Below, piece after piece: positions 12,791 through 41,298 of a DNA stretch of 64,000 bases. The notes under the pieces were generated by a model, which did not search any database, was not told the DNA's origin, and saw nothing but the letters and a program-made list of their open reading frames with translations. The DNA is from Acetivibrio alkalicellulosi (lineage in GTDB: Bacteria; Bacillota; Clostridia; Acetivibrionales; Acetivibrionaceae), in NCBI GenBank assembly GCA_008125075.1, contig VLTH01000002.1, positions 1,307,965 to 1,371,964 of the forward strand, written 5' to 3'. A program made the translations under genes and the position numbers. How positions within the stretch are numbered: position 1 is the stretch's first letter; the number at the start of each line of letters is the position of its first letter.

Positions 12791-12861
12791 AAATACACCC
12801 CTTTTTTTACCCACATAAAAATTAAACTCTGTTATTATTATTTAAGTAAGAATGGAAGATT

Positions 12862-21072: not shown

Positions 21073-21094
21073 ATTTATACTTGATGGGCGGTTA

Positions 21095-22417
21095 TCATTT
21101 GCTTTTCATATAGGGCTTTAATGCTTCAATATCTTTATCAAGTTGATCTAAAACAGTTTGAGAGCAATTATTAAGTAATGTAGCAGCAGGAACTGATATG
21201 TTTGAGCTATCCTTAAAGACCTCACTCCACCAGATTGTTCTTGCTTTTTCATCTAGTGGAGTAAGGTTATAGTCAGGTATTCTTTCAATTAGCATCCTAT
21301 ATAGCCTATCAATATCCTGATCACCAAATAAAACATCATTGTAAACATTAGTATCATTAGGTTTCATAACCTCACCAATTATCTCTATGTGCCTGTTTGA
21401 AAGCAATTCCACAACTGTCCATGCAGCTTCTTTGTTGCTGGCCTCAGATGAAATTGCTGCAACAGCACTATTTGCCCAACTATATATACCAAATGGTAAT
21501 CGGGTCATGCGCCATTTTCCATCTTCTTTACCATTTGTCAACTTTTTCAGAGTATCTATATCTGAAAAAGTTGACTGAAACATTATAGTTTTACCAGTTT
21601 CAATAGAGCTTTCCTTATTAAAATCAGTTAAATTTACCATATGTGCTAAACCTAGAGAATCCACAGTTCTTCCTAATTCCAGCATATTAACAAAAAGATT
21701 GGTGTTTCGCATAAAATTTAAATTTGAGTCAAATACATTTGAACTGATATCTGCGTAAAATAGAGGCTCATAGGTCCAGGAGATCATATACTTATCATTT
21801 TCCCTAAAAGTCTTAGCCATTTGCAGCCAGTTATTTATGTTTTCCATATACACAGCAAGCTCTTCTGGATCTGCAGGAAAGCCTGCAGCCTTCATTGCAT
21901 CGTATCTATAAAAGGTTACAGCCGGAAAAAGCTCAACTGGCAAAGCTATGAGTTTTTTTCCATCTAATGAACGTAGAGCTTTTTTTAAGTTTTCTGGATA
22001 TTCATTAATGATAGACTCAGCATTAAAAGTATTAAGATCAATAAATGCATTGGTAGAGTTAAAACTTCCCATCAAAATAGGATCTAAAATAAAAACATCA
22101 GGCAACTCACCCATACTATGTGCCAGTGAATAAACATTAGTTGCTTCAAAAGGAGAAATAACCCGATAGTTAATTATACTATTCGAAATGCCCTTGTGAA
22201 TCAACTCCTTAATCTCTTCACTTATCTCATAAAAAGACCATATAGTTAATTCTTCTATCTTTTTGATTTCTGAGTAATCTTCTAAAATATTATTTTGTTC
22301 AGGCATCTCAACACCATGTCCCGGTCTAATAACTATAGGTTCCCTTTTCTCTCCATAGTTGCATGCAATCAGTAAAAGCATAGTGCTATAAATCAAAAAC
22401 AAAATATACTTTTTCAC
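21095..22417 (-). CDS. Lipoprotein resembling an ABC substrate-binding protein (family 1-like). Translationally coupled downstream of the GGDEF-EAL gene and likely its ligand-sensing partner.
   Basis: GTG start 2 nt after the upstream stop, with AAGGAGTG inside the end of the upstream gene. Signal peptide plus lipobox LLIAC. Size of 440 aa fits a solute-binding protein. The family assignment is tentative. Confidence 0.65.
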   Translation of the reverse strand: MKKYILFLIYSTMLLLIACNYGEKREPIVIRPGHGVEMPEQNNILEDYSEIKKIEELTIWSFYEISEEIKELIHKGISNSIINYRVISPFEATNVYSLAHSMGELPDVFILDPILMGSFNSTNAFIDLNTFNAESIINEYPENLKKALRSLDGKKLIALPVELFPAVTFYRYDAMKAAGFPADPEELAVYMENINNWLQMAKTFRENDKYMISWTYEPLFYADISSNVFDSNLNFMRNTNLFVNMLELGRTVDSLGLAHMVNLTDFNKESSIETGKTIMFQSTFSDIDTLKKLTNGKEDGKWRMTRLPFGIYSWANSAVAAISSEASNKEAAWTVVELLSNRHIEIIGEVMKPNDTNVYNDVLFGDQDIDRLYRMLIERIPDYNLTPLDEKARTIWWSEVFKDSSNISVPAATLLNNCSQTVLDQLDKDIEALKPYMKSK

Positions 22418-22418
22418 T

Positions 22419-25022
22419 TTAAAAGATCACTCCTTCTATGACTTTTGAATTGTCCATACACTGCTCCCACATTTGAGTAAAACTTTCTTTATTCATTGGT
22501 TGATAAAAGTAGTGCCCCTGCATTTCATCACAATGATATCTCTTTAAAAAACTCCTTTCAGACTCTATTTCAATGCCTTCAGCTACTACTTTTAAGTTCA
22601 TTCCATGGGCTAGTGCAATAATAGCTTTTACAATAGAACTATTGTTCCTATTAGTACCAACACTTCGAACAAAGGATTTATCAATTTTTACTACACTGAT
22701 TGGAAAATGTTTTAGCTGTTTTAGGGAAGAATATCCAGTTCCAAAATCATCAATAGAAATTGTCACTCCCATATCTTTTAGCTGTCGTAACACCTTGTTC
22801 ACATAGTCAACGTCTTTTATCATAAACCCCTCTGTAATTTCTAGTTCAAGGTATCTAGGCTCTAATCCTGTCTCATCTAATATCATTCGAATCTCTTCTA
22901 TAATACGCTCATTGTAAAATTGCCTCGCTGATAAGTTAACAGCAACACGTATTTTAGGAAATCCCGCATCCTGCCATTTTTTATTCTGCAAGCATGCTTC
23001 TCTTAAAACCCATTTCCCAACAGGGATAATAAGACCAGATTGCTCAGCTACTGGAATGAATTGACTAGGAGAAATAAATCCTTTTTGGGGATGATTCCAT
23101 CTAATTAGTGCTTCTATCCCTTGTATTTCTGATGTAACTCCATCAACTATTGCTTGATAATATATGGTAAGCTGTTTTGTATCTAGAACTTTACGCAATT
23201 GATTTTCCAACCACAATTGTTCATTAAGTCTCGTTTGAAAAGACTCAGTATAAAAAGAGTAAGTATTTCTTCCTTCTTCCTTAGCAATATACATAGATGC
23301 ATCTGCAAACCTCATTAGTGTTTCTGCATTATCCCCATCCTTAGGATACAATGCAATCCCAATGCTTGATGTTATATGCAGTTCATGTTGATCTATATAA
23401 ACGGGCTTTCTAATTAATCCCAAAATATGTTGTGCTATACACTCAGCCCACTCCTGATCCATCTGTTCTCCAATCACAACAAACTCATCTCCACTTATAC
23501 GAAATACTCGAATAGTATCTGATTCAATTGTGGCAAGTCGTGCAGAAATTTCTTTTAGCAACCGATCACCTACAGCATGCCCAAGAGAATCATTTACTTG
23601 TTTAAAACGATCAAGGTCAAAGAATAATAGTGCGAAAAAGCTGTCCTTAGAAGAACATTGAAATAATGAGTTTAGTGCATCCTGCATTGATAGGCGATTA
23701 GGCAAGCCTGTAAGTAAATCATAATATGCCAGACGATGGGTTCTATGAAACATACTCTTTAAGTTGTCTGCCACTGTTTTGAAGTTACATGCTAATGTAT
23801 CAATTTCTACTATACTACTCTTATTCCATTCGATCTGGTTTTGCCCAGCTAGACGTGCAGGGATTCCTGTTGTAGTATCTGCAAGTTTTGCCAGTGGTTT
23901 AAAGAATATGTGTTCAAATAGAATACTAAGAAAAATCATACCTGAACAAAAAAACAAATACACCCAAAGTTGAGATATATATAAGCTTAATAAATTTGAT
24001 AAAAATGACTCAAAAGGCATCATAATGACTACCTTTAACTGCATATCATAAAAAACTTTTTCTCTTATAACATATGCATAACTCCATTTCTCTAATTGAC
24101 TTTTAAATTCTCCATTAGGTACCCAATAAAAGATATTACTAAACTCAGCTGCTACGCTTCCCCCTCTATACCAAACAAAATTTTCTCCTCTCAGAGGTTC
24201 TAAATTAGATCCTATTACCATATCATAGAGGTTAGTGATAACAATTTCTGTACCACTGTCTGCTGAGATTTCCCCTAAAATTTGATTTAATCGAGATACT
24301 TGAACAACGCCATGGTGTTTTAGCGCAAATAAGTCAGTATTTGTGTGATTTTTCAGGTGGCTTTCTATAGCCTGCATTTGAGATACAAATGTTCCATCAG
24401 CTAAATCTATAATACCCAGTGTGTTTTTGTAACCATTGAAACTCATATATATCAAGTATGGAATTGTAATAGCCACTAGAGTTGTATGGATCATAATACA
24501 ATTAAAGCGAAAACCCTTTTTAGAACCACCCATTTGTTTTAAAGGACCATATGTAAATAAAATATCTACAAACAAGCTACTAATTAGTGCCGTAATTATT
24601 TCTTTTAGAATTATAAAAATGCTAATTTGAGCCATCTCACCATTTGCAATTGTAAACGTAATAGCCATAAGTGGCCCACCTATCAATAACCAAAACAGTA
24701 AGGTATTTTGAATTAGTCCATTGGGATTGTTTTTCATTCTATATGATATAAATGCTACAGCCAAAATGTAAATTACGCCCATTTGTAAATTTATAGCACT
24801 CATTAACACAGCACATCCATATATGACGAAAGCAGCCAATATAGTTTCTCTGATTCGATACAAGCAAATAATGACAAGTAATGAAATAGTAGCCAAAGAC
24901 AAGCTGATACCAGCAAATAAAATAATGGGTTGCGTTAGTAAAAACAAAGATAATGCCACTAGAGCTATGTATATAAAAAACCTCATTGCCCATTTGGGTA
25001 TAAAATTTTTAATTGGCATCAA
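22419..25022 (-). CDS. Multi-pass membrane sensor protein with GGDEF and EAL domains for c-di-GMP turnover. The GGDEF motif is degenerate (SGDEF) and the EAL motif is intact, so it is likely a phosphodiesterase.
   Basis: 867 aa. The N-terminal half has multiple transmembrane helices. RISGDEFVV replaces the GGDEF motif. QGIEALIRW, DDFGTGYSS and ELEITE match EAL-domain motifs. Confidence 0.9.
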   Translation of the reverse strand: MMPIKNFIPKWAMRFFIYIALVALSLFLLTQPIILFAGISLSLATISLLVIICLYRIRETILAAFVIYGCAVLMSAINLQMGVIYILAVAFISYRMKNNPNGLIQNTLLFWLLIGGPLMAITFTIANGEMAQISIFIILKEIITALISSLFVDILFTYGPLKQMGGSKKGFRFNCIMIHTTLVAITIPYLIYMSFNGYKNTLGIIDLADGTFVSQMQAIESHLKNHTNTDLFALKHHGVVQVSRLNQILGEISADSGTEIVITNLYDMVIGSNLEPLRGENFVWYRGGSVAAEFSNIFYWVPNGEFKSQLEKWSYAYVIREKVFYDMQLKVVIMMPFESFLSNLLSLYISQLWVYLFFCSGMIFLSILFEHIFFKPLAKLADTTTGIPARLAGQNQIEWNKSSIVEIDTLACNFKTVADNLKSMFHRTHRLAYYDLLTGLPNRLSMQDALNSLFQCSSKDSFFALLFFDLDRFKQVNDSLGHAVGDRLLKEISARLATIESDTIRVFRISGDEFVVIGEQMDQEWAECIAQHILGLIRKPVYIDQHELHITSSIGIALYPKDGDNAETLMRFADASMYIAKEEGRNTYSFYTESFQTRLNEQLWLENQLRKVLDTKQLTIYYQAIVDGVTSEIQGIEALIRWNHPQKGFISPSQFIPVAEQSGLIIPVGKWVLREACLQNKKWQDAGFPKIRVAVNLSARQFYNERIIEEIRMILDETGLEPRYLELEITEGFMIKDVDYVNKVLRQLKDMGVTISIDDFGTGYSSLKQLKHFPISVVKIDKSFVRSVGTNRNNSSIVKAIIALAHGMNLKVVAEGIEIESERSFLKRYHCDEMQGHYFYQPMNKESFTQMWEQCMDNSKVIEGVIF

Positions 25023-25250
25023 AAAATACTCCCTCCAATAGTTTGATATACAATAACAAATAAAATCAAATGTTCATTCATACTGCCATTATTGACGAAT
25101 TTTTTATGTATATAGAATAATAGTTCAACGAATTTTTACAAAACCCTTCTTTTTTAAATATATTTTTTCCTTTTTAAAGTTAAATTCCTTTTACTTGCAT
25201 AGGGAAATATTTCATATTTCCCAGTTTTTCAAAGCTTTTCAAACTATATC

Positions 25251-25449
25251 GGGTGCATATTATTTAAGTGAAGAAAAATATGGAAGAAACATTGTAAAGC
25301 AATTAGTAGAGCCTGTTAATGCGACGAGGAAAGGGAGAGCATTGTTTGAGCGAAGCGAGTTTTGCTCGATGCCGAGGAGTATTTACAGGCTCTAAACTGC
25401 GAAACTTTAGTTTCTGGAATATTTTTCTTCACATTTGTTACATGCACCC
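25251..25449 (+). repeat. R3-a: a 199-bp MITE-like element with roughly 30-bp terminal inverted repeats (GGGTGCAT..TTTAAGTGAAGAAAAATAT). Its interior holds an R1-like core (gagcgaagcgag...gctcgatgcc).
   Basis: The left end gggtgcatattatttaagtgaagaaaaatat matches the reverse complement of the right end gaatatttttcttcacatttgttacatgcaccc. Fragments of the left end recur at 52674, 55143, 58585, 62163 and 12826/13180. Confidence 0.75.
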
Positions 25450-25632
25450 AACTATATCAGATAATTTGACAACTACTAACTTGCAATCAAAGAACATATC
25501 TTTGTAAATTTCTTTTTATATTATAACACATTTGTTTTTTTCTTCAATGATCTAAGTTAAAAATGGTCACCTCCTTCTAAGAATTCTAATGAAAAAAGGG
25601 GCTTAGCTAATAGCTAAAACCCTTTCTCATTA

Positions 25633-25696
25633 GAAGTCTTGGAACGAAAGTGAAAGACTTAAAAGCGAAGGGGCTCGATGCCCCAAGCTTTTATTT
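25633..25696 (+). repeat. R1-B element (hairpin 1 aagtctt/aagactt; hairpin 2 ggggctcgatgcccc; T-tract). Terminator-like on both strands.
   Basis: gaagtcttggaacgaaagtgaaagacttaaaagcgaaggggctcgatgccccaagcttttattt. It lies between the 3' end of the giant ATPase gene and the promoter region of the GGDEF-EAL gene. Confidence 0.7.
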
Positions 25697-25853
25697 AATA
25701 TTAAAGGTCAATACTTGATCTTTTTGCTCATGAATGTCTAATTCAATTACACCTGATACATGCCTTATCATTAATACGTAGTCTGTATTGTCTATATTAC
25801 CATCGCCATTAATAATCAAATGTATCTAGCAACAGCCTATCTTTTTTACATCT

Positions 25854-28800
25854 CTATTTTTTCCCTTGGGATATACGTTCAACAAATTTTTGAACCCCAT
25901 TTGAGTGCATATCTTTTAACTCAGTCATTATCTCAACAAGGTTTTCAAGTTCTTTCTTTTCTACACCTTTTGCAAGCACCTCTTTTATGTTTTCCAACAT
26001 TAGTACTGCCTGCCCTACTTTATCATCACCTTTAACAAGCTTGTTTTTATTGAAAAATACTTTAATCTCTTCCCATCTAACTTTTTCCTCTTCATTGAGA
26101 CAACCCACAAGTTCCTTCCATTTAAGCATATTTGCTTCTGCACCAGTAGTAAGTGTTTGTGAATCATTTTCATATGCAGAGATAACAAGTTCATTTACTT
26201 CGTCGTCGTTCATAACAGCTACTATTTTCTCGGCTATTTTGTTCATATTTCTGTATGAACCTTGAAGTTTAAATGGAGGTTCTGTCCTGTACTCATCAGC
26301 CTGTGCTGCCGAACGTATATATTCCATATTTATCTTTAAAACTACGTCTCTTACCTTAATAAGCTTTTTAAATACATCTGTAAACTCATTAATTTCTTCA
26401 ATAGAGTAATTCCCCTCAAAATTCATATCTTCCATATGAGAACCTTGAGCTATTTCTATTAATGAGTAAATATCCTTTCTACTCCTATTTGAAAGCTTGC
26501 TTAGAACTGGATTAGATGTTAAGCTGTTCTCAATAAAGCTTAAAATAAAGGCATCATTATTCTCTCTTGTCATATCCCCAAGATTGTATACATCTGCTCT
26601 ATTTGAAAGCATATCTGGAATTTGAAATTTATCTCCACTTTCAGTATAAGGATTTCCAGCCATTACAACAGCAACTTTTTTACCTCTTAAATCATAACTT
26701 TGACCAACACCTTTATAAACCCCTTCTATTTTTCTCTGTCCATCACAAAGAGGTATAAACTTTTGCAAAAATTCTGGATTACAGTGCTGAATATCGTCAA
26801 CATATATCATTATGTTATTACCCATCTTAAATGCTAAATTAAGCTTTCTAAGCTCCTCTTTAGCACTTGCATTTTTTGCGCTTTCAGGGTCTAAAGAAGT
26901 AACTTCATGTCCTAGTGCCGGCCCATTTATTTTTATCAGTGTAATTCCAAGTCTGTTTGCAACATACTCCATCAACGTAGTTTTACCATAACCTGGAGGT
27001 GAAATCAAAAGAAGCATTCCCATTAAGTCAGTACGCTTGTTTTCTCCGGCTACACCTATTTGCTTTGCCAAATTATGCCCTATAAGAGGCAAGTAAACTT
27101 TGTCAATAAGTTGACTTCGAACAAATGACGATAATACTCCAGTTTTAAACTCATCCATCCTAAGCTCATCTTTACATTCTTGAATAAGCTTTTTCTTTAA
27201 TTCTTGGAAATTTATATAATCCGGTACTGCACCCTTTTCAAAGCTCTGTAGCTTTTTCATAAACTCTGTATATGATAAAATATACTCTCCATTTTTTATA
27301 ATTGGGTGACTTCCACTCAAGTCTTTAATTGTCAGCGATGTCTTTGTCTGTATTAAATTTCTTGCATCATAGCCATTTAAAATGAACATAACCGCAACTT
27401 CATCTACTAAACCCCTGACATTATCAAATTCTCTATCAACTAAAAATGCCATCAACCATTCTCGTATTAAATAGTATAAACCTTCTAAATCTTTGACTGA
27501 GGCTTTAAGCGAATCTGTAAAAAGATCATATGCATTTTTATCTTTCAAATCATCTAAAAACTCAAAATACAAATCATGGGCTTCCATACTAATTACAAAA
27601 GAATTCCCACGCATTAATTCCATACATAGGTACTCGGAAGCTTCGCTAATAAGTCCAACCTCAAAAAATGTCATGCTACAAAGTGATTGCTCCATAGATT
27701 TTTTTACTAAAGGCAAATAATCACTTAAATTAGGTTTTCTATTAAAATATAGAGAAACTTTTGACAATTCTTTTAGCCTTATTTCAAATTTTTCTTTCAT
27801 TTCATCACTAGCAAAGCGCTTCCAGAAAAGCTGTGCAAACGCCCTAGCTGATGGACTGTAAATTAAAAGATCAATATCTACATGTAGTTTTATTAGTTCT
27901 TTTAAAATAATAAGGCAGTCCATATCATGAACACCTTTTGTATAACTCTCTTGATACCTAGGCTCCATAAACTTTTGTATGAATTCTAGAAGCTCTTGAT
28001 CTGAATATCTTTGTAAGCTTTCGATATTTTTGTTTTCTGCTTCAAATATTTTATAAGTAAGATATTCTCCCCTGTAAACTTCTTTGTTTTCAGATAAAAC
28101 TTCCTGATCCCAGCTGGCACGATATTTGTTAATCTCTTGGGATGTAACTCTTTCCCAAAAATCAGTACCTGAAATATGAAAGTAAAAACCATCATCTTTT
28201 TTTACCATTGAAAGATCAAGTGGTTTTGTATTAACGGAAAATAAATTATTCCCAAACTTCACAACATTCTTACCACCAACAAAAAGCTCCTGTTTATCCT
28301 TAAGCTGGCGTATTGCATCTTCCCTAACTGTTTTTAATCTAGACTGTATTTCATCTGACTTAACTGTATCGTTAAGAGAAATAAGCTGACTTGCAATATC
28401 TCTTACCTTTTCAATCATAATGTCAGATGCAAAATAACCATTAATCTCTTCTATTTCATTAAAACTGTTTAGTCTGTTTCCAATTCCCTTAAGAAGTCTA
28501 TCGGCTGCCGACATAAGAGCAGTAATCTTTTTGTTTTGCCTATCTAATATTGATTGTTTTTTTGTTTCAAATGCATTGTAAAGCTCTTCTCTTTTTTCAG
28601 TCAGATCTACTATATACTCTTCAAAATCCGCAAACTTTCCCTCTAACTCTTCAATCTGAACTATTACCTTATTTAAATACTCGTCACATTTATCAACTGA
28701 GTCAGAAATATCAAGATAATTAACTACAGCATGGTTTAATAGCTTCATTTGTGAATGAAACTGTGCAGACCCCTCTGTTTTTAAAAGATCGTCCATGCAT

Positions 28801-30821
28801 GTTTTAAGTCTTGCTTTTCCTTGATTTAATTTTGAATATATAGAAGATATACTGTCAATAATTTCTGTTGTTTTTGTAGTATCTTCAATTTTAAAATTAG
28901 TAACTATATCAATTAAAAGCTCTAGTTCTGAAGATGTCTTTGACATCTCTTCTCCAAGTGCTTTTCCTTCCATTGTCTTTTCAATTTTACCAACTTTCTC
29001 ATTATGCAATTCAACCTGTTGTATATAAGGCTTAAGACCTTCTGGTGTTAAAAGAAAATCAACACACCTCTTAGAGAAATCTTCATTTTTTTGTTTAACC
29101 TTATCTTCTAAACTCTCAACTAAAGAAATATCTGTATACCTTAAATCTTTTAAAGATACAATTTCTCCACGAAGCATCCTTAAATTTGATAAAACACCTA
29201 CATACTCATCAACAGTACTAAGATTACCAAATTCAATTTCTTTTAAAAGGCTTAGAGCCTTTTCTTCTACATCATTAATTTGTTTTTGGGTAGCTTCTTT
29301 TATTCGTGTAACCTTTTCAAATTCAGCTACTGCTGATGCTGCTGTATCTCTTATATTTCCCATTACTGATTTTAAATCAAATGCTTCTTGTTCACTAATC
29401 CAAAAATATGAGTCTATAATGATATCTGATTCTTTAACAATATCAACATAAATCTCAGAATAACTCTCTCCTTTTAAAATCAAATTAAATACAACTTTGC
29501 AATCAGCCATAGCCCTTACAATATCTTTATTTCCAATTTTAAATAGTAGACAATCATTCTTTGTATGGGTAACATAATCCTTTCCCACATAAGGAGTTTG
29601 CCAAATTTGAATCATATGATTCCTTTGGGGCTCGGCTTCATGCCGAAAAACAATCATTTCTCCACTTGAAAAATGGGAGTACCCACTACATACAATAGGA
29701 GTATCAAGAGACTGTTCTATTAGATTATATGAATACACAAAGTATATTCCGCTTTCAGTATTATAGAAAATGTACTGATAATCCTCCCCATTTGGAGACT
29801 CTATTTTTTGATCAAAAATACAGTTATGGGCAGGTACATCAAATAATTTGTATTCTCCACTTTGTAAATAGTAACCCTTTGGAAAAATAAGACCGTGATC
29901 ATCAGGTAATAACATACAAACATCTTCTATTGCATCTATACGAACAACACTTTTAAGTTTGTCATTATAAATAAAGTATCTGTAGTTTTTTTCTTTATAT
30001 GGTCTGATTTTTAGCAAAACAATATGACCTAAAATAGCATAAAGTATTTCAGCATCATCTAATGTCTGATCCTTATTTTCAACTGGCTCGGAATATATCC
30101 CCTTTCCAATATCTGTGTTATCTTCAACTTTAATTGTCAAATCTCCTCGAAGAGTTTCAACAAACACCCTATCTTTAATTGAAACATGTGGATACTTTCC
30201 ACCCCTATGATCTTCTCTTCTTACCCTTACCCAATCAAAATCCTGGCGATTTGAAAACTTAACTTCTTGATCACTTCTGTTGTCAACGTATGCAAGTTTA
30301 TTGTCTTTTATAAGCCACTTAAATACTTTAGTGTCTATTGAACTTTTTCCTGTCTGAAATATCATATATAAATAAGGGCCTTGTATTGTAAACTTAGCAA
30401 AAAAGGTATTTTTATAATATTTGTACAATTCGTTAAAATCGTTTATAAACTGTTTATCTTCAATAAGTGAAAGGTTTAGTTTGTGAAATGATCTGTCTTT
30501 ATACTCATATATAGAAAAAACGTCCTCAATCTCAACCTTTGATTTAAGTCCCATATGAACATTATAACCAAATATAAACCAATTACCTATAGGAGCCATA
30601 TCTCTTGGGACACAGTTATTTTCAGTTATAATCCTTTCACTTCCTAAAATGGTGGTTTCAATAGCTCCAAAAACTTCTTTTCTCTTATCATTTAATCTAT
30701 CAAGTCGCTCTTTTAATTCGTTGCCATGCTTTAATAAACGACTTTTTATAACCTCATAGGTTCCATTTTCTAAACCACCATTTTTCTCATTATCTTGCCC
30801 CTTTGCTTTTATATCAACCAC
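25854..30821 (-). CDS. Giant (1655 aa) uncharacterised protein: N-terminal aromatic-rich beta-domain, long helical middle region, and a C-terminal MoxR/AAA_5-like AAA+ ATPase domain.
   Basis: GTG start with a GAGGTG RBS 8 nt upstream. Walker A reads LLLISPPGYGKTTL, Walker B IMIYVDDIQ, and sensor-1 VVMAGNPYTESG...SNRADV in the MoxR/AAA_5 style. A possible own promoter (TTGCAT, 17 nt, TATAAA) sits at about 30850-30880. Confidence 0.85.
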   Translation of the reverse strand: MVDIKAKGQDNEKNGGLENGTYEVIKSRLLKHGNELKERLDRLNDKRKEVFGAIETTILGSERIITENNCVPRDMAPIGNWFIFGYNVHMGLKSKVEIEDVFSIYEYKDRSFHKLNLSLIEDKQFINDFNELYKYYKNTFFAKFTIQGPYLYMIFQTGKSSIDTKVFKWLIKDNKLAYVDNRSDQEVKFSNRQDFDWVRVRREDHRGGKYPHVSIKDRVFVETLRGDLTIKVEDNTDIGKGIYSEPVENKDQTLDDAEILYAILGHIVLLKIRPYKEKNYRYFIYNDKLKSVVRIDAIEDVCMLLPDDHGLIFPKGYYLQSGEYKLFDVPAHNCIFDQKIESPNGEDYQYIFYNTESGIYFVYSYNLIEQSLDTPIVCSGYSHFSSGEMIVFRHEAEPQRNHMIQIWQTPYVGKDYVTHTKNDCLLFKIGNKDIVRAMADCKVVFNLILKGESYSEIYVDIVKESDIIIDSYFWISEQEAFDLKSVMGNIRDTAASAVAEFEKVTRIKEATQKQINDVEEKALSLLKEIEFGNLSTVDEYVGVLSNLRMLRGEIVSLKDLRYTDISLVESLEDKVKQKNEDFSKRCVDFLLTPEGLKPYIQQVELHNEKVGKIEKTMEGKALGEEMSKTSSELELLIDIVTNFKIEDTTKTTEIIDSISSIYSKLNQGKARLKTCMDDLLKTEGSAQFHSQMKLLNHAVVNYLDISDSVDKCDEYLNKVIVQIEELEGKFADFEEYIVDLTEKREELYNAFETKKQSILDRQNKKITALMSAADRLLKGIGNRLNSFNEIEEINGYFASDIMIEKVRDIASQLISLNDTVKSDEIQSRLKTVREDAIRQLKDKQELFVGGKNVVKFGNNLFSVNTKPLDLSMVKKDDGFYFHISGTDFWERVTSQEINKYRASWDQEVLSENKEVYRGEYLTYKIFEAENKNIESLQRYSDQELLEFIQKFMEPRYQESYTKGVHDMDCLIILKELIKLHVDIDLLIYSPSARAFAQLFWKRFASDEMKEKFEIRLKELSKVSLYFNRKPNLSDYLPLVKKSMEQSLCSMTFFEVGLISEASEYLCMELMRGNSFVISMEAHDLYFEFLDDLKDKNAYDLFTDSLKASVKDLEGLYYLIREWLMAFLVDREFDNVRGLVDEVAVMFILNGYDARNLIQTKTSLTIKDLSGSHPIIKNGEYILSYTEFMKKLQSFEKGAVPDYINFQELKKKLIQECKDELRMDEFKTGVLSSFVRSQLIDKVYLPLIGHNLAKQIGVAGENKRTDLMGMLLLISPPGYGKTTLMEYVANRLGITLIKINGPALGHEVTSLDPESAKNASAKEELRKLNLAFKMGNNIMIYVDDIQHCNPEFLQKFIPLCDGQRKIEGVYKGVGQSYDLRGKKVAVVMAGNPYTESGDKFQIPDMLSNRADVYNLGDMTRENNDAFILSFIENSLTSNPVLSKLSNRSRKDIYSLIEIAQGSHMEDMNFEGNYSIEEINEFTDVFKKLIKVRDVVLKINMEYIRSAAQADEYRTEPPFKLQGSYRNMNKIAEKIVAVMNDDEVNELVISAYENDSQTLTTGAEANMLKWKELVGCLNEEEKVRWEEIKVFFNKNKLVKGDDKVGQAVLMLENIKEVLAKGVEKKELENLVEIMTELKDMHSNGVQKFVERISQGKK

Positions 30822-30930
30822 AGCTTTTACACCTCATCTTTATATTTTAAGAAAGGCTAAGATGCAATAATTCTTTAAGCACTTAGCCAATATCACTATA
30901 TTTTATTATTACCTTTTAGATTTAATGATT

Positions 30931-30955
30931 TGCAGCAGGTTAATCACCTGCTGCA
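30931..30955 (-). other. 10-bp-stem hairpin (gcagcaggt/acctgctgc) immediately after the flotillin stop codon. It has no U-tract, so it may be an attenuator, a processing site or a partial terminator.
   Basis: Inverted repeat seen directly in the 143-bp gap between floT and the ATPase gene. Confidence 0.4.
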
Positions 30956-30964
30956 TCCATTAGT

Positions 30965-33037
30965 TTAATTTTGAATTCTTTTAATTTTCTCAGCTGGTTC
31001 ATTACCAAATCCAGCTTTTTCAACTGCATCTAAAAGCCTTGTTAATAATGGCTTTTCTGTTGTGTTTGCATTGCTCATCATTTTATGAATAGCTCCAGAT
31101 ATTGTTAAATTCTTTAAGTCTTCTGAAGTCAAATTAAATCTAGATGTAAAGTTTTCTAGTTGATTCTTAAAATAGTCAGCATCGCCAGTAATAAATGTAT
31201 TTTTTACATCTTGTAACACTTCACTGCTTCCTACCATACGATCAAAAGACTTTCCTCTTGTAACAGACTCAACAATTTTATCAAAGAACATTGTCTCACC
31301 ACCAACAATATCGATTGATGCAGATTTAAGTGCCTGGCTAATAACCTCTGCTTGAGCTTTTGCAATTTCTCTTTGAATATTGATACTTGCAAGTTCAATT
31401 TCTTTTTCTTTTTCAAGTCTAAGCTTAAATTCTTCATGTCCTCTTCCTGCTTCATCAAGTGCCTTCATACTATTAGCCTTCTGAGCAATACCTTCTGCTT
31501 CTGCTCTATATTTTTTAGCAAGAATTTCTGCTTCAACAGTTCCTTCTTTTTCTTTAACCAATACTTTTGCTTCCTGGCCTTTAGCTTCAGCTTCAGCAGT
31601 AGCTTGAAGAATTTTAGCCTTAGCCTCTCCTTCTTTTTCAAAAGCAACAGCTTTAGCTTCAATAATACGAGCTTCTGCAAGTCCTGTCTTAGCTTCTTGT
31701 AAAACTTCTGCATCAGCTATCAATTTAATTGCATCAGCTTCTTTTTGTGATGCCTTAAGTTTTGCTTCTGCCTCAATAATCTTTTGTTCAGCCATTCTTT
31801 CTGAAGCTTGTTTAGAAGCTTCTGCAGACTTTACTTCTACAATTAGTTTTTTCTCTGCTTCTTCTTCCGCCTGTTTTATAGATACAGTTTTCAAACGTTC
31901 AGCTTCTGCTATAGCTTTAGTGTCTTTAATCTTTTCTTCTTCTATAACAACATCTTTTTCAACTGCAACTCTTTCTCGAATAACAGTCTGAATATTTTTC
32001 TTTTCTTCTTCTAAAGATTTTTGTTTTTCAATCTCAGCTAATTCTACAAGTTTTTCTTTCTCAGTTTTTTCCAAAAGACGCTTTTTGTCAACACGTTCAG
32101 TTTCAATAGCATCTGTACTTTCTTTTGATTTTTGTGCAACAATAATTTGTCTTTGTTTATTTTCTTCTGCAATTAAAAGCTCTTCATCTGCTTTTATTTT
32201 AGCCATTCCAGCCTTTAGTCTCTCTTCTTCAGCTACTTTATCAGCTTCAGCCTTTTCTCTTGATTTAATAATTGAAACTTCTCTTTGTTGACGAGCTTCT
32301 GCTTCTTCGTTTTGCTTTTGCAACTCTAAGATAGCCTCTCTTGCAGTTACATCTTGCTGTTTAATTGTCTTTTCTTTTTCTCTTTCTATTTGATTTGCAA
32401 GTACCAACTGATTTGAGGTTAACTCTGTAATCTTTTTAATACCTTCTGCATCAAGAATATTATTACTATTTAGCTTTGCCAAATCTGTCTGTTCAAGATA
32501 ATCTATAGCAGCATCATCTAATACATGCCCATTAAGATCAGTTCCTATAATTTGTAGTATTTCATTTTTAAAAGTTTCCCTCTCTGTATAAAGCTGAACA
32601 AAATCAAACTTCTTACCTACAGTCTTTAACGCTTCAGAAAACTTTGCATCATATATCTCCATAAGAGTTCCTTTATCAGAAGCCTTTTGACAGCCTAATG
32701 ACTGTGCAACTTTTAAAACAGCTTCTTTAGTTTGATTAACTCTTATAAAAAAGGCCACTCTTATATCTGCTCTAAGGTTATCCTTACAAATAAGACCATC
32801 CTTACCTTCTCTATTAATCTCAACTCTTTTTACCGATATATCCATTATTTCTGCATGATGAAGTATAGGAACAACAACCATTCCACCAAAGGATACTGTT
32901 GGTCCACCAACACCATTTCTTACAATTGCCTTCCCTTGTTCAACCTTTCGATAAAACCTAGTAAACATAGCTAGTATACCAAAAAATAGTATTATACCAG
33001 CTACAATAACTACAGCTATAACTTGCGCAGTACTCAT
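30965..33037 (-). CDS. floT: Flotillin-family SPFH/band-7 protein (FloT/YuaG-like) with an N-terminal transmembrane helix and a long Ala/Glu/Lys-rich coiled coil.
   Basis: 690 aa. The SPFH domain follows the transmembrane helix, and an extended EAxxK coiled coil follows that. Its ATG overlaps the stop of the upstream NfeD-like gene (TGAATG). Confidence 0.88.
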   Translation of the reverse strand: MSTAQVIAVVIVAGIILFFGILAMFTRFYRKVEQGKAIVRNGVGGPTVSFGGMVVVPILHHAEIMDISVKRVEINREGKDGLICKDNLRADIRVAFFIRVNQTKEAVLKVAQSLGCQKASDKGTLMEIYDAKFSEALKTVGKKFDFVQLYTERETFKNEILQIIGTDLNGHVLDDAAIDYLEQTDLAKLNSNNILDAEGIKKITELTSNQLVLANQIEREKEKTIKQQDVTAREAILELQKQNEEAEARQQREVSIIKSREKAEADKVAEEERLKAGMAKIKADEELLIAEENKQRQIIVAQKSKESTDAIETERVDKKRLLEKTEKEKLVELAEIEKQKSLEEEKKNIQTVIRERVAVEKDVVIEEEKIKDTKAIAEAERLKTVSIKQAEEEAEKKLIVEVKSAEASKQASERMAEQKIIEAEAKLKASQKEADAIKLIADAEVLQEAKTGLAEARIIEAKAVAFEKEGEAKAKILQATAEAEAKGQEAKVLVKEKEGTVEAEILAKKYRAEAEGIAQKANSMKALDEAGRGHEEFKLRLEKEKEIELASINIQREIAKAQAEVISQALKSASIDIVGGETMFFDKIVESVTRGKSFDRMVGSSEVLQDVKNTFITGDADYFKNQLENFTSRFNLTSEDLKNLTISGAIHKMMSNANTTEKPLLTRLLDAVEKAGFGNEPAEKIKRIQN

Positions 33038-33038
33038 T

Positions 33039-33665
33039 TCACTCTACCCCCTTGAATTTTTTAACATAATAAAAATCTTTCTCAGTATCTTTACAAATAA
33101 CTAAAACTTTATCACCCTTTTTAAGGCTCTCGCCTTCCTCAACTTTTACATTGATTCTAAAAGGTGCACCTTCTCTTTCTACTTCTGCCTGCCCTAATCT
33201 TACATTATCTACGTCACATAACAAACTACAAAGCATTCCCTCGACTTTTTCATGAGCACTATTATCCTTATACATTTGTCTAAACAGACCTTTTAATGGG
33301 GTTGTTATTACTTTTGTAATAAGGACACTTAAGATAAAAGCAGGAATCAATAAAAGACCTCTAGATAGTTCTCCGAACTCAGGCGTCATCATATAAGTTA
33401 TCATTGACACTGCCCAAAAAACAAGATTTATAACACTTAAAACAAGCATAAGAGGAAGATCTGCTAGATTAATAAATGTGAGAATGCCATGAAAAGGACC
33501 AGAAATAGGACCAGCATCTGATACATCCGTATCAACATCCACATCAAGAAAATCAATATCAACAACACCTATTATAACAGTCAACCAATAAAAAATAGTC
33601 AATCCCAACAAAGTAGTTGGTATGATGTTCACACCTGTTACAATTGTTTTAAAAAATTCCAACAT
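33039..33665 (-). CDS. nfeD: Short-form NfeD-like membrane protein (YuaF-like; transmembrane helices plus a C-terminal OB-fold beta-barrel), the usual operon partner of flotillin.
   Basis: Start taken at the second ATG (AGGGGAG, 6 nt, ATG); the first ATG at 33692 has no RBS. There are three or four transmembrane helices. The C-terminal segment VEREGAPFRINVKVEEGESLKKGDKVLV is typical of the NfeD OB-fold. Confidence 0.8.
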   Translation of the reverse strand: MLEFFKTIVTGVNIIPTTLLGLTIFYWLTVIIGVVDIDFLDVDVDTDVSDAGPISGPFHGILTFINLADLPLMLVLSVINLVFWAVSMITYMMTPEFGELSRGLLLIPAFILSVLITKVITTPLKGLFRQMYKDNSAHEKVEGMLCSLLCDVDNVRLGQAEVEREGAPFRINVKVEEGESLKKGDKVLVICKDTEKDFYYVKKFKGVE

Positions 33666-34017
33666 AATTATCTCCCCTGTTTCTAACCTCATTTTAGTAT
33701 ATACTATTTTTTCTTATAAAAGTATTAAAACATAAAACTATATTTAATAAAAAAACAGTATATATCATCAAAGCTTCATTAATAGAAATCTTTAATTATT
33801 CTCTGCAATTGAATACAGCAAATCACTTATTGGATATTCAATATTTTTAGGTAGTGCTTCATAAAAACCAAACAAACAACAATGGATCAAGTGTCATTTG
33901 ATTTAAGGCATCCTTTTTGAAATGACTTAGTTTTAGTGTAACACATTAAAAAAAATATATCTCAATTTACTTGATTTGTCAATACTTTTTGATAATTTTA
34001 CATTAGTTTTAATAAAA

Positions 34018-34335
34018 TTAAATTACCTCTGTAATAAAAATCATTTCATTTGTAATGTCAATATTAACTTGTTTTTTAAGTTTTTTATCATCAACATTCC
34101 ATACACATTGACACACATAAATACCTTTACTCACTTCTTCTAGTTTTTCTAGTTCAAACACTTCATTAAATCCTTTTTTCATTAAAGACTCCATTATTTC
34201 TGAGGAGTTTTTAAAAAAAGAATATTCGATATATTCGGATATTTTACTAAGATATTCTACCAGTTCATTTGATTTCATATAAACTCTCCTTTCTAGAATT
34301 ATTACAGATTTGCATTTTAGTTGTATTATTAGCAA
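34018..34335 (-). CDS. Hypothetical small protein (105 aa; it may start at the internal Met, giving 86 aa).
   Basis: ORF only. No recognisable motif. Coding-like codon usage. Confidence 0.35.
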   Translation of the reverse strand: MLIIQLKCKSVIILERRVYMKSNELVEYLSKISEYIEYSFFKNSSEIMESLMKKGFNEVFELEKLEEVSKGIYVCQCVWNVDDKKLKKQVNIDITNEMIFITEVI

Positions 34336-34887: not shown

Positions 34888-35454
34888 TTAGAGTATTTTC
34901 TTAATACACTCCCATAGAACATCACACAATTGTGGTGAATCAAAGTCACTTCCAAATCCACTAAGATTATAATTATTACTTCCTGCTTCAAATCCTATTT
35001 CTCCACTATCTACCAACATGTAAAAGTCAACGGATTTAGAACTGTTCTTAGCTAAAATCTCAATCATTTGACCAATAGATAAAAGTGGTACACAATCTAT
35101 TTTGCTAAAATCCACTGGACGTTGGTAGGAAAAATCAAACTCCTCTTCCATAACATCTTCAAATAGTTCCTCATCATCATTAACTTCAATTTCCTCATCT
35201 AGTTCATCATCGCCTTCACAGCATTTATCAGCAGTATCAGGCAAATATCTTAAATCATATACTCTTAAACGATTATTAAGCACTCTTATGTCACCTATAA
35301 CAAATTCAATTTCATCGTATTCCTCTTCTTCAGCATCTTTACATATATAAGCAACTGCAACATCATATTTTTGTGGAAGCCAAAGTTCATTTAAACGTAG
35401 TTTTTGACTTTCATTTAGTTTTGAAACGTCTTCTTTTGCTATATGATTTTTCAT
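34888..35454 (-). CDS. Highly acidic hypothetical protein (188 aa, Asp/Glu-rich, with a CC pair).
   Basis: ORF with an AAAGGGTAAGGTGA RBS. No recognisable domain. Its own promoter region follows the PilM terminator. Confidence 0.5.
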   Translation of the reverse strand: MKNHIAKEDVSKLNESQKLRLNELWLPQKYDVAVAYICKDAEEEEYDEIEFVIGDIRVLNNRLRVYDLRYLPDTADKCCEGDDELDEEIEVNDDEELFEDVMEEEFDFSYQRPVDFSKIDCVPLLSIGQMIEILAKNSSKSVDFYMLVDSGEIGFEAGSNNYNLSGFGSDFDSPQLCDVLWECIKKIL

Positions 35455-35583: not shown

Positions 35584-36690
35584 CTATAGAGAAATACCAA
35601 CTGAATTTATTAAATAATTAAGTTTTTCTCTATCAAGATTTTTCCTAAGCTCAACGCCTTTAAGGCTAAGTAAACCTACCGGATAAACCGGAACATTAAA
35701 TATTGAAAACAAATACTGGTCTAATCCATTTAGTTGAGATCCTCCACCAATTATAAAAATTTTAGAAATCTGTGACCCATAACAACGTTCAATATAAAAC
35801 TCAAAACACTTAACGATCTGAGTAACTAATCTTTCTATGAAGGTATTTACTTTGCCATACGCAATAACATGCTCTCTCTTAGAAAGACTATTTGGCGGAT
35901 TCATCCCATACATTTTCTTGATTCTTTCAGCTTCTTGCAAAGTTATGCTCATCTCATTAGAAATATGGTTATCGATATTTGAACTACCTGATAATATAAC
36001 TTTGTTAAACTCTAGTACCCTGTCTTTTAAAAAGTTAACAATAGTTGTCTCAGAACCAAAATCCAACACAGCATAAGTATCACTTTGAACATTTTTATGC
36101 TTTCTTTTAGAATAATACTCATCCATATCTTTAGTGTATATATCCCTATTAAAAAACTTTGCTGTGCTGTTTGCCGGGATATCAACTGCTAATGGTTTTA
36201 AATCAAGACCTTGCAAAACCTCGATATAGCTTTCTAATATTTTTCTTGGAACTGCAGTAACAAAAACTTTATACTTTTCTTGATTTTTGTCTCTAACAGT
36301 TGTAAGAAGCTTATAGTCCACCCTGTAGTTGTCAATATCAACAGGAAGAAAATTTGGCATACTGTTTTTTATAGTAAAGTCTTCACTCTCGCCTTCCGCT
36401 TTATCAATCATATATATCCTGGTAATAATATTTGTACCCGACATAATAATTTTAGCGTTTTTAGCTTTCATACCTTCTTCTTTGATAACGGTTTTTATAA
36501 CTCTTAATACTCTCTCAACATCATATATTGCACCATTCTTAATACAATCTTCAGGAGTTGCAACTATTCCGTAGTTTTCAATAAATATATTATTGTTTTT
36601 CTTTACTGAAACTTCAACTACCTTAATGTTTCGATACCCTACATCAATGCATACCATAGATGTTTTTCTCATAAATAAATCCAAAAACAT
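35584..36690 (-). CDS. pilM: PilM-like actin-fold ATPase-family protein (type IV pilus assembly PilM / FtsA-like). It is an orphan: no pilN/O/P/Q or pilin genes lie next to it.
   Basis: 368 aa. GAGGGGGA RBS. The N-terminal MVCIDVGYRNIKVVEV and C-terminal IFIIGGGSQLNGLDQYL fit the PilM/FtsA actin-like fold. It appears to be monocistronic. Confidence 0.7.
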   Translation of the reverse strand: MFLDLFMRKTSMVCIDVGYRNIKVVEVSVKKNNNIFIENYGIVATPEDCIKNGAIYDVERVLRVIKTVIKEEGMKAKNAKIIMSGTNIITRIYMIDKAEGESEDFTIKNSMPNFLPVDIDNYRVDYKLLTTVRDKNQEKYKVFVTAVPRKILESYIEVLQGLDLKPLAVDIPANSTAKFFNRDIYTKDMDEYYSKRKHKNVQSDTYAVLDFGSETTIVNFLKDRVLEFNKVILSGSSNIDNHISNEMSITLQEAERIKKMYGMNPPNSLSKREHVIAYGKVNTFIERLVTQIVKCFEFYIERCYGSQISKIFIIGGGSQLNGLDQYLFSIFNVPVYPVGLLSLKGVELRKNLDREKLNYLINSVGISL

Positions 36691-36894
36691 TTACATATCC
36701 CCCTCTAAAGTGCAGAACACTTATGTTAAACACATAAACACTATATATTATACGATATATTAACTCAGGGCACAACATATTTGTTATATAAAATAAAAAT
36801 TTATATAATAAAGATATGCCTTTTTACAATAAACTTGTATACTTTTTTTATTATAGCACATTATTTATTATAATTCCAGCATATTTACATCACT

Positions 36895-38058
36895 TTACTT
36901 AAATAAACACTTATTAATATTTTCGGATATTTCCCTAATTGAATTTAGTAGTATTTCAATTTCTTTTTCCGTATTAAAAAATCCAACACTTATTCTTACT
37001 GCTCCTGTTTTTATTGTTTTTAGAGTTTCATGAGAAAGAGGAGAACAATGGAGACCCGAACGGCAAGCTATATTATAGACTTTATCAAATATATAACTTA
37101 TTTCACTTGATAAAATGCCATTAAAATTAAATGCAACAATTCCTGAATTTTTTGTTTTTTCTACTCTACTATAAACGTTAACATTTTTAAGTTGTATTAT
37201 TCCCTCATATATCTTCTTTATAAGTTTGTGTTTTTGTTTATTTATTTCTTCAATGCCCACGCTGTTAATAAACTCTATTCCACATGCCAATCCAACTATT
37301 CCCGGTGTATTTAATGTTCCACTTTCATGTACGTCAGGATATATCTCAGGCTGAGCAAAGCTTTCCGAGTTACTACCAGTACCACCTGTCATAATTGGAC
37401 ATACTTTAATCCCTTCCCTTATATAAAGCCCACCTGTGCCTTGAGGACCTAATAGTCCTTTATGCCCTGGAAAAGCTAACATATCAACATTTAATTCATT
37501 TACGTCAATTTTAAAAGATCCAGCTCCTTGAGAACCATCAATTAAATACAAAATCCCTTTATTATGTGCAATAGTACCGATTTCTTTTACAGGCATTATT
37601 ATGCCATTTACATTGGATGACAAAGTGCTTACTATGAGTTTTGTATTTTTTTTAATTGCCTTTTTTATGTCTTCTGCATCAATCTCTCCAAATTCATTTC
37701 CCTTAATAATTGATACTTCAACATTATTTGCTTTTTCCATTAGTTTTAAGGGTCTTATTACAGAGTTATGCTCCATACACGTTGTAACAACATGATCTCC
37801 TGGTTTTAGTACTCCCGTAATAGCAATGTTTATAGCTTCAGTAGCATTTTTAGTAAATACAATATTCATTGGATTTTTTATATTAAAAAAACTGGAAATA
37901 ATTTGCCTGGCATTCAATATGGCTCTTCCTGATTCAAGAGACATTTTATGACTTCCTCTACCTGGGTTTGCACAGTAATATTTCATGCACCTTAACATCT
38001 CCTCTAAAACCTTATCAGGCTTTGGATATGAAGTTGCAGCATTGTCAAGATAAATCAT
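36895..38058 (-). CDS. Cysteine desulfurase / class-V aminotransferase-fold PLP enzyme (NifS/IscS/Csd-like).
   Basis: Start placed at the ATG at 38058 (GAGGTG, 6 nt, ATG); the track extends to a GTG at 38067. The sequence has the class-V fold character and the motifs HKGLLGPQG and SGLHC near the C-terminus. Confidence 0.85.
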   Translation of the reverse strand: MIYLDNAATSYPKPDKVLEEMLRCMKYYCANPGRGSHKMSLESGRAILNARQIISSFFNIKNPMNIVFTKNATEAINIAITGVLKPGDHVVTTCMEHNSVIRPLKLMEKANNVEVSIIKGNEFGEIDAEDIKKAIKKNTKLIVSTLSSNVNGIIMPVKEIGTIAHNKGILYLIDGSQGAGSFKIDVNELNVDMLAFPGHKGLLGPQGTGGLYIREGIKVCPIMTGGTGSNSESFAQPEIYPDVHESGTLNTPGIVGLACGIEFINSVGIEEINKQKHKLIKKIYEGIIQLKNVNVYSRVEKTKNSGIVAFNFNGILSSEISYIFDKVYNIACRSGLHCSPLSHETLKTIKTGAVRISVGFFNTEKEIEILLNSIREISENINKCLFK

Positions 38059-38273
38059 CTTTTCCACCTCAATAATTTTTTCTTAAATATGCAAGATCGA
38101 CTTTTTTATAAGTGTCAATAATGCTTTTAATTGAATGTACATGTAGTAAATGTAAAGAATAATATGTAACATCGGGGTAAAGCCCCACCTCTACCTCAGT
38201 AAATTGTATCCTTATCTTATTTTATTAACCTACTATCTAAATATGTGCCACATGGACAACTCTTTTGATAAAG

Positions 38274-39578: not shown

Positions 39579-39580
39579 AC

Positions 39581-40924: not shown

Positions 40925-41298
40925 AATAACCTCCAATAATCCGGACAAGTTCATGTCCACTTTTATTCCCTTAAAAATCAAAAAACCCTTCAAGACTATG
41001 ATTAATGTCTTAAAGAGTTTACATACCACTTTAGTGCACTTTAAAAGTAACACATAAAATACTATTTACTCAAAACTTTGAGTACTATAGCAGATTGTAG
41101 ATTCAATCTACAACCACAGTAATAAGAACAGAACACTTTGCTCCATTCCCCCTTCGATAAGACAAAATCCATTTCGTCAGGTAAATCACAGCATAGATTC
41201 TATAAATGCCAGGAATAACTCCTCACATTCTAGATTTGTTCTATAACTGCAATAAATTATATTTAATTTTAGCCTTTCAATTTGTTCAATATTACTAG

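Follow-up and report, generated by a model that had tools for sequence, protein, structure and literature searches.

Two described pairs of genes, yqiJ-yqiK of Escherichia coli and yuaF-floT of Bacillus subtilis, join a short NfeD protein to a flotillin of the SPFH2 group (Hinderhofer et al. 2009). A longer arrangement, in which co-oriented genes for a YqiJ/YuaF-type protein and a band-7/flotillin protein are followed by a gene for a propeller/coiled-coil/AAA+ protein, was reported computationally by Ravi et al. (mSystems 2024, PMC11237479; bioRxiv 2020) in connection with the phage shock protein PspA. Its full form carries a CesT/Tir-PspA dyad, abbreviated operons without PspA are described as "more widely distributed", an example from Dokdonia donghaensis (ANH61663.1) is listed in the supplementary table, and chaperone-like assembly roles are proposed. 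Here we analyse a locus of this operon type in 64,000 nucleotides of DNA assigned to Acetivibrio alkalicellulosi (contig VLTH01000002.1; this whole stretch is the window). Three co-oriented open reading frames (ORFs) of the minus strand fill positions 25854-33692: the gene for a YqiJ/NfeD-like small membrane protein, then a YqiK-type flotillin gene, then the gene for a giant AAA+ ATPase. We find that flotillin and ATPase stay together across at least eight phyla, and we lean, with moderate confidence, towards the view that the ATPase is an ATP-driven remodeller of the flotillin scaffold in envelope-stress membrane maintenance.

The window holds the same three gene families as the operon of Ravi et al., in the same order; the CesT/Tir-PspA dyad of the full form is missing, and no PspA, CesT or LexA-like gene lies nearby. 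By gene content, the locus is the abbreviated form of that operon. The original prediction, which had placed the three ORFs correctly, regarded the combination as a system not yet described, a claim that falls with the report of Ravi et al. In fact, the locus belongs to an operon type that comparative genomics had already noted, without experiments. That earlier description deals with gene neighbourhood only and contains no structure, AAA+ clade, conservation figures or experiments. Our literature searches found no paper with experiments on any family member and nothing on DUF3686, PF12458 or "DNA repair ATPase" together with flotillin; an ATPase partner goes unmentioned both in Hinderhofer et al. 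(2009) and in a 2026 survey of SPFH proteins of Pseudomonas aeruginosa.

A family-alignment scan, with one genome per species, confirmed 551 relatives among 600 candidate stretches, and we kept the best 80 loci, which come from Bacillota, Bacteroidota, Planctomycetota, Verrucomicrobiota and Calditrichia and encode ATPases 47-68% identical to the window copy. Upstream partners were found by tblastn with the window flotillin and small protein. Directly upstream and on the same strand, 71 of the 80 loci encode the flotillin and 63 encode the small protein. Six of the nine flotillin-less loci have less than 2.7 kb of upstream sequence, and among loci with at least 3 kb the flotillin is present in 64 of 67 (five phyla). 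A more divergent ATPase homologue (34-48% identity) occurs in 13 plasmid records, and the flotillin is again directly upstream in all five of the plasmid-record loci examined (Pseudomonas pQBR103, Streptomyces, Proteus, Deinococcus and Vibrio). Combined, this makes 69 of 72 informative loci in eight phyla, Pseudomonadota, Actinomycetota and Deinococcota joining the five named above. Because the flotillin gene stands directly upstream, on the same strand, in 64 of 67 and in five of five loci, the linkage is not due to chance, and on these gene orders the three genes are one inherited module. The scattering of ATPase homologues away from SPFH and nfeD genes, which would have spoken against the proposed nfeD-floT-ATPase association, is therefore not what other genomes display; for an operon, gene order could hardly be kept more strictly.

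No further conserved family emerged when all ORFs of these loci were clustered, the next best being found in 15 loci. Over 58 loci, the mean pairwise identity across phyla of the flotillin (57%) and of the ATPase (53%) exceeds that of the small protein (33%). The distance matrices of ATPase and flotillin correlate with a Pearson coefficient of 0.86, a value that is confounded by shared phylogeny and is only consistent with joint inheritance. At eleven Bacteroidota loci, small variable ORFs lie between the flotillin and ATPase genes; these junction inserts include a recurrent DUF559 protein (Vsr-like endonuclease fold, E=4e-27), which suggests selfish or mobile insertion.

The layout of the locus is consistent with joint expression. 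The nfeD-like gene (33039..33665, minus strand) encodes 208 residues counted from M10 of a maximal ORF that reaches 33692. M10 at 33665 is most likely the true start, because it has a GGGGAG ribosome-binding site, because the NCBI protein also has 208 residues and because homologue alignments begin at residue 10. The flotillin gene (30965..33037, minus strand; 690 residues) follows after a gap of one nucleotide (gag-TGA-a-ATG); the original prediction had the stop and start codons overlapping and was thus wrong by one base, and translational coupling stays plausible despite the gap. Between floT and the ATPase gene (25854..30821, minus strand; 1655 residues, GTG start) there is a structured intercistronic spacer of 143 nucleotides (30822..30964), and a GAGGTG ribosome-binding site lies 8 nucleotides 5' of the GTG. 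The whole spacer folds at -36.9 kcal/mol (z=-4.0) and is predicted to form two hairpins. The first (30923-30962) has no U-tract, as had been said of the intergenic hairpin; the second (30855-30888), which that account did not include, is followed by UUUCUU. A search of the leader and this spacer against Rfam returned no riboswitch or other RNA family. In close relatives the junction measures about 11 nucleotides or the genes overlap, and where relatives have longer spacers these are usually structured (median z -4.0, n=28 loci).

The best sigma-70-like promoter match, identified by consensus only (TTGACA-17-TATATT, 11/12; 33954..33982, minus strand), is about 290 nucleotides upstream of the nfeD-like start. 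About 170-290 nucleotides past the ATPase stop, folding predicts two terminator-like hairpins (25567..25684, minus strand): the first (25670-25684) is GGGGC-AUCGA-GCCCC and runs into U-rich sequence, the second (25567-25653) has about 40 bp and is followed by UUUUU, and the stretch 25540-25860 folds with z=-5.8. These hairpins are likely the end of the transcription unit. Rfam matches of the second one to miRNA precursors were judged spurious. The intergenic region that holds them, 25023-25853, is unusually long at about 830 nucleotides. Given the single-nucleotide nfeD-floT gap, the ribosome-binding sites, the upstream promoter-like site, terminator-like hairpins after the ATPase gene alone and the 11-nucleotide or overlapping junctions in close relatives, we infer that the three genes form a single transcription unit, in which transcription may be attenuated ahead of the ATPase gene.

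One could instead take the adjacency as functionally meaningless, with the ATPase gene transcribed from a promoter of its own and the role of its product unrelated. The two hairpins of the 143-nucleotide spacer, one with its UUUCUU tail, could be read in this way, as could the promoter-like hexamers inside the 3' end of floT and the three loci that have no SPFH gene upstream of the ATPase. However, promoter-like matches number 59 against 44 +/- 6.5 in shuffles, which is not far over expectation, and the same arrangement recurs in 69 of 72 informative loci in eight phyla. We regard a meaningless neighbourhood as extremely improbable.

The flotillin begins with a hydrophobic segment (residues 4-26), which is followed by a Band_7 domain (residues 31-171; 46.5 bits against a cutoff of 23.6, E=5.7e-12, when the N-terminal 240 residues are scanned alone). 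This domain puts it in the SPFH/Band_7 superfamily. A Pfam scan of the full-length protein reported no domain, and full-length queries with the flotillin and with the small protein gave no match in Pfam, NCBIfam or PDB sequences, the assignments of both proteins coming from domain-wise and profile-based searches. The flotillin of Gimesia alba behaves like the window copy, precomputed and full-length Pfam scans being free of domains. The cause is probably the compositional bias of the coiled coil, rich in E, A and K, through which Band_7 is missed in full-length scans. Automated annotation will thus often overlook the SPFH partner and hide the link between ATPase and flotillin.

Behind Band_7 come an E/A/K-rich helical region of about 270 residues and then a conserved, subfamily-specific C-terminal region of about 200-260 residues. 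The protein is homologous to E. coli YqiK (BLASTP, 29% identity over 457 residues, E=7e-42), which places it in the YqiK/FloT subfamily (SPFH2). An hhalign comparison with YqiK (100% probability, E=9e-40) covers columns 14-441 only, that is, the SPFH domain and the coiled coil. The C-terminal 260 or so residues fail to align with YqiK, than which the window flotillin is 137 residues longer. When the C-terminal halves of ten family members were compared with Pfam Flot (PF15975), one gave a sub-threshold match (16.8 bits against 27) and the window protein gave none. Identity of the flotillin across phyla is 51-80%. RFYRK follows the transmembrane segment, so that by the positive-inside rule the SPFH domain and the long helical wall lie on the cytoplasmic side.

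The small protein has three predicted transmembrane segments, an acidic DxDxD loop and a conserved C-terminal segment (GQA...GAP...NV...KGD), which can be aligned to the C-terminal part of YqiJ from E. coli. Of 30 family members, 16 match the YqiJ_N model (best E=3.6e-8; window copy E=0.037), and hhalign of the family profile against E. coli YqiJ gives 96.9% probability and E=1.8e-10 over 179 columns, C-terminal part included. A YqiJ-type N-terminal membrane domain and homology that extends into the C-terminal soluble domain put the protein in the short NfeD/YqiJ (DUF1449) family, in agreement with its NCBI name, "DUF1449". Pfam NfeD (PF01957) gave no match at E<=10, and the family profile found no PDB chain, such as that of YuaF, at E<=1. 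The NfeD label originally given to this gene is corrected to YqiJ/NfeD-like, the support coming from YqiJ_N and hhalign and not from the Pfam NfeD model.

The giant ATPase is identical to an NCBI protein of equal length, and its nearest relatives (67-71% identity) come from metagenome-assembled genomes (MAGs) of Bacillota, Oscillospiraceae and Acetivibrio; a look-up of the exact protein in the contig index gave no record. The original prediction had sketched a beta-rich N-terminus, helical regions and a C-terminal AAA+ module, all of which appear in AlphaFold2 (AF2) models, and its guess of DUF3686 was correct. Pfam DUF3686 (PF12458) covers residues 35-473 with E=3.3e-180 and is matched over its entire profile (positions 1-448 of 448), DUF7902 follows at residues 595-673 (E=1.9e-23) and AAA at 1270-1389 (E=6.6e-8). 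This combination is that of the DUF3686 family, called "DNA repair ATPase" at NCBI, and more than 5,500 homologues share the same DUF3686-DUF7902-AAA architecture. A search with the DUF3686 N-terminal domain found 762 representative clusters among 1.84 billion proteins, with full-length members of 1550-2036 residues; DUF3686 thus occurs in essentially one architecture. The ATPase has no predicted membrane segment and no predicted signal peptide.

Its N-terminal part (residues 16-500; 29322..30776, minus strand, as are all the following segments) is assigned by Pfam and AF2 to a long helix at the N-terminus, followed by a beta-rich domain at 57-410 and a bundle of helices at 425-499; the model of residues 1-500 has a mean predicted local distance difference test score (pLDDT) of 89 and a predicted template modelling score (pTM) of 0.86. 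The beta-rich domain is modelled as about 26 strands in propeller-like blades. Foldseek matches of residues 1-500 are all beta-propellers (Elp1, Fbw7, prolyl oligopeptidase, CyRPA, sialidase), with E values of 1e-7 to 1e-5 but template modelling scores (TM-scores) of only 0.14-0.26, and in the model the domain looks like a set of propeller-like blades with no close solved analogue. Residues 501-852 (28266..29321), which include DUF7902, are predicted by Pfam and hydrophobic periodicity to form a helical, coiled-coil-like linker: from about 450 to 830 the chain shows a helical, amphipathic 3.5-residue repeat and is poor in Pro and Gly, as seen in a periodicity scan that replaces a coiled-coil predictor only roughly. 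The model of residues 840-1655 (pLDDT 88) comprises a small beta unit, a helical domain and the AAA+ module. Residues 853-1236 (27114..28265) hold the five-strand beta unit (853-891) and the all-helical domain, for which no structural match ranks above those of the AAA+ part. The AAA+ module, followed by its lid domain, occupies residues ~1237-1500 (26322..27113) by motifs, Pfam and AF2. A conserved C-terminal helical region (residues ~1501-1655 and the stop codon; 25854..26321), defined by alignment and AF2, ends the protein.

The AAA+ motifs that had been quoted are present: Walker A is PPGYGKTT at 1275-1282 (GYGKTT at 1277-1282), Walker B is IYVDDIQH with D1342-D1343, and sensor-1 is AGNPYTESG with N1390. 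None of their residues varies in alignments of 15 and of 111 homologues, and R1408 occupies the arginine-finger position. DSSP applied to the AF2 model finds a beta-hairpin at 1364-1377, between alpha3 and beta4 and before sensor-1, while the beta2-alpha2 stretch 1300-1317, the position of the helix-2 insert, is a conserved loop and not a hairpin; this loop, when its sequence is read against the model, has no aromatic pore-loop motif. In the model, the AAA+ core is of the remodeller type and structurally closest to MoxR proteins (CbbQ, NorQ), dynein and midasin, and not to RuvB. Together with a Pfam AAA_5 match that sits at threshold (22.3 bits against 22), this supports the earlier MoxR-like call and points to the MoxR/AAA_5 (dynein-related) group. 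The Walker B of the family is not the canonical hhhhDE of MoxR: it ends in an invariant DD, which we take to resemble the IDDIQ of DnaA and which could make hydrolysis slow and switch-like. No VWA family, the usual partner of MoxR proteins, is among the conserved or recurrent neighbours.

Database names such as "DNA repair ATPase" or "Holliday junction resolvasome, helicase subunit" would make the protein a DNA-repair enzyme. Pfam indeed calls DUF3686 an "ATPase involved in DNA repair", NCBI uses similar names, and the P-loop gives a weak RuvB_N match (E=1.6e-5) that falls below the cutoff of that model. However, the RuvB models of NCBIfam, whose equivalog cutoffs are 282 and 299 bits, score the protein at 24.7 and 23.2, and sequence matches to solved structures (RuvB, NVL) are limited to about 45 residues around Walker A. 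In addition, Pfam found no nuclease, helicase or DNA-binding domain in the protein, its conserved partners are membrane proteins and no repair genes recur in the flanks. We consider a repair function most improbable and reject the name, which goes back to P-loop resemblance alone.

PspA/IM30 is a bacterial homologue of ESCRT-III. About 15 Bacteroidota loci carry two more genes at the upstream end of the operon, one for a CesT/YbjN-like protein (E=5e-53) and one for PspA/IM30 (E=2e-45), and a LexA-like regulator with helix-turn-helix (HTH) and S24 domains is encoded divergently from it. These loci, with their order of divergent HTH+S24 regulator, CesT, PspA, YqiJ, flotillin and ATPase, reproduce the full form of Ravi et al. 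On plasmid pQBR103 of Pseudomonas fluorescens SBW25 (record positions 85112-97641), the module closes a PspA-polyamine operon with the same-strand order PspA, rhomboid protease, DUF2491, DUF350, DUF1190, glutathionylspermidine synthase-like protein, hypothetical protein, SPFH, ATPase, a cluster that links the module to the polyamine-PspA operons of Ravi et al.

These neighbourhoods bear on a serious rival to remodelling of the flotillin scaffold, namely that the flotillin merely recruits the ATPase, which then acts, as an analogue of Vps4, on unfolded or mis-assembled membrane proteins or on PspA/IM30 polymers and leaves the cage as it is. Such a client chaperone would fit the PspA and CesT-like chaperone genes of the 15 or so loci and of pQBR103, as well as the chaperone-like roles suggested by Ravi et al. 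(PMC11237479). According to a 2025 review, bacteria appear to lack a Vps4-like ATPase and none is known for bacterial PspA, and the flotillin of Staphylococcus aureus is reported to hold unfolded proteins (PMC11222466). Yet most loci, the window included, have no PspA gene nearby, and the beta2-alpha2 loop of the ATPase is without an aromatic pore-loop motif. A client chaperone would also leave unexplained both the conservation of the flotillin, much higher here than among flotillins at large (57% mean identity, against 29% to YqiK), and its subfamily-specific C-terminal domain. Serious as it is, we hold this alternative to be less likely than remodelling of the scaffold.

Apart from PspA and CesT, the 148 other flanking proteins that we sampled belong to varied housekeeping genes, which differ from one locus to another. 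This matters for the proposal, raised in the original prediction, of a defence module, here a membrane-anchored one directed against phages or mobile elements. Known defence systems do include large AAA+/NTPase proteins beside membrane proteins, the phyletic distribution of the module is patchy, and weak PADLOC matches to mad8 (E=0.003) and TRIP13 (E=0.03) could be taken as hints. However, PADLOC-DB v2 returned nothing significant for any of the three window proteins (the best, mad8, has E=0.0033 and 15 bits), and among the 148 flanking proteins its two matches are generic DEAD-box helicases. An identity of about 50% across phyla is unlike that of fast-evolving defence genes. No copy of the ATPase was found in 50,697 phage records and 2.9 M viral contigs, and the 13 plasmid copies, out of 72,556 records, are mostly on megaplasmids or chromids. 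A defence role is very unlikely; the membrane-remodelling or quality-control role named beside it is plausible and is reinforced by the PspA and CesT genes.

How would a remodeller of the flotillin scaffold work? Like other AAA+ proteins, the ATPase would oligomerise, probably into a hexamer, and its propeller and its helical arm of about 350 residues would attach it to the flotillin assembly on the cytoplasmic side, the likely docking site being the subfamily-specific C-terminal domain of the flotillin. ATP would then power the remodelling, disassembly or resetting of the scaffold and of the proteins retained in it, which in many lineages may include PspA/IM30 polymers. Membrane maintenance during envelope stress would be the outcome, with FtsH in HflK/C cages, m-AAA with prohibitin and Vps4 on ESCRT-III as analogues. 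The structured spacer between floT and the ATPase gene would probably lower expression of the ATPase relative to the scaffold. We favour the flotillin cage as the substrate because the whole flotillin is unusually constrained in exactly the subfamily that has an ATPase partner.

Several points weigh against scaffold remodelling. A PspA-like sequence was searched for across the 64-kb window and not found. At three Bacteroidota MAG loci (L037, L045 and L053), the ATPase gene has 10 kb of upstream sequence with no SPFH or YqiJ gene. The invariant DD of Walker B is unlike the DE of MoxR, the locus has no VWA partner such as MoxR systems typically have, and hairpin 2 of the spacer, with its UUUCUU tail, could terminate part of transcription. 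A sharper form of the idea, which we offer tentatively as one possibility, is that the ATPase is a dedicated disassembly or remodelling motor of the flotillin cage, that it acts indirectly on recruited PspA/ESCRT-III-like coats and that the non-canonical propeller and the long arm read the assembly state of the cage. If true, a bacterial flotillin would have its first enzymatic partner, and SPFH scaffolds would have a functional counterpart to Vps4, NSF or p97.

The surroundings of the operon in the window appear unrelated to it. The neighbours in 18547-25022 and 35584-41053 include an MCP chemoreceptor with Cache and HAMP domains, a solute-binding protein, a membrane GGDEF-EAL protein, PilM, a class-V aminotransferase and two radical-SAM/BATS proteins. 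Upstream, the ORFs 34018-34335 and 34888-35454 have no Pfam match. At the left edge of the window (1-12841, minus strand), an ORF of more than 4,280 residues starts at about 12.8 kb and runs off the end; its first 1,500 residues contain fibronectin type III repeats, and it probably encodes a giant surface protein. The NCBI source proteins TYQ15589.1 and TYQ15590.1 are tagged "UNVERIFIED_CONTAM", and the organism assignment of the contig may be unreliable.

To our knowledge, no enzyme acts on bacterial flotillin scaffolds. The locus bears on the function of bacterial flotillins and on the disassembly of SPFH cages and PspA polymers. In this module, the pairing of flotillin and AAA+ ATPase is stricter than that with any other gene. 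A cross-phylum identity of about 50-57% for both proteins is unusually high conservation, and the widespread annotation "DNA repair ATPase" is misleading. Copies in tractable hosts (Proteus mirabilis, Vibrio campbellii, Pseudomonas fluorescens pQBR103, Streptomyces and Clostridium paraputrificum) make the module directly testable.

In comparison with known systems, the first two genes are homologous to yqiJ-yqiK and yuaF-floT, with the same order and tight spacing; unlike the window, E. coli yqiJ-yqiK has no ATPase gene downstream. The MoxR proteins CbbQ, NorQ and RavA have about 300-500 residues, VWA/MIDAS partners and a Walker B with DE. The window ATPase differs from them in that a single AAA+ module ends a 1655-residue chain, no VWA protein is among its conserved neighbours and Walker B has DD. 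Vps4 and ESCRT-III suggest a similar logic of polymer remodelling, the link between AAA+ protein and PspA being here one of gene context. The best mechanistic precedents are HflK/C-FtsH and prohibitin-m-AAA, in which an SPFH scaffold is paired with an AAA+ protein at the membrane, as we propose here. FtsH and m-AAA are membrane-anchored proteases of the classic clade, whereas the window ATPase, with neither protease domain nor transmembrane segment, would fall, by its model, among the AAA+ proteins that have a hairpin before sensor-1, and it has a propeller and a long arm as well.

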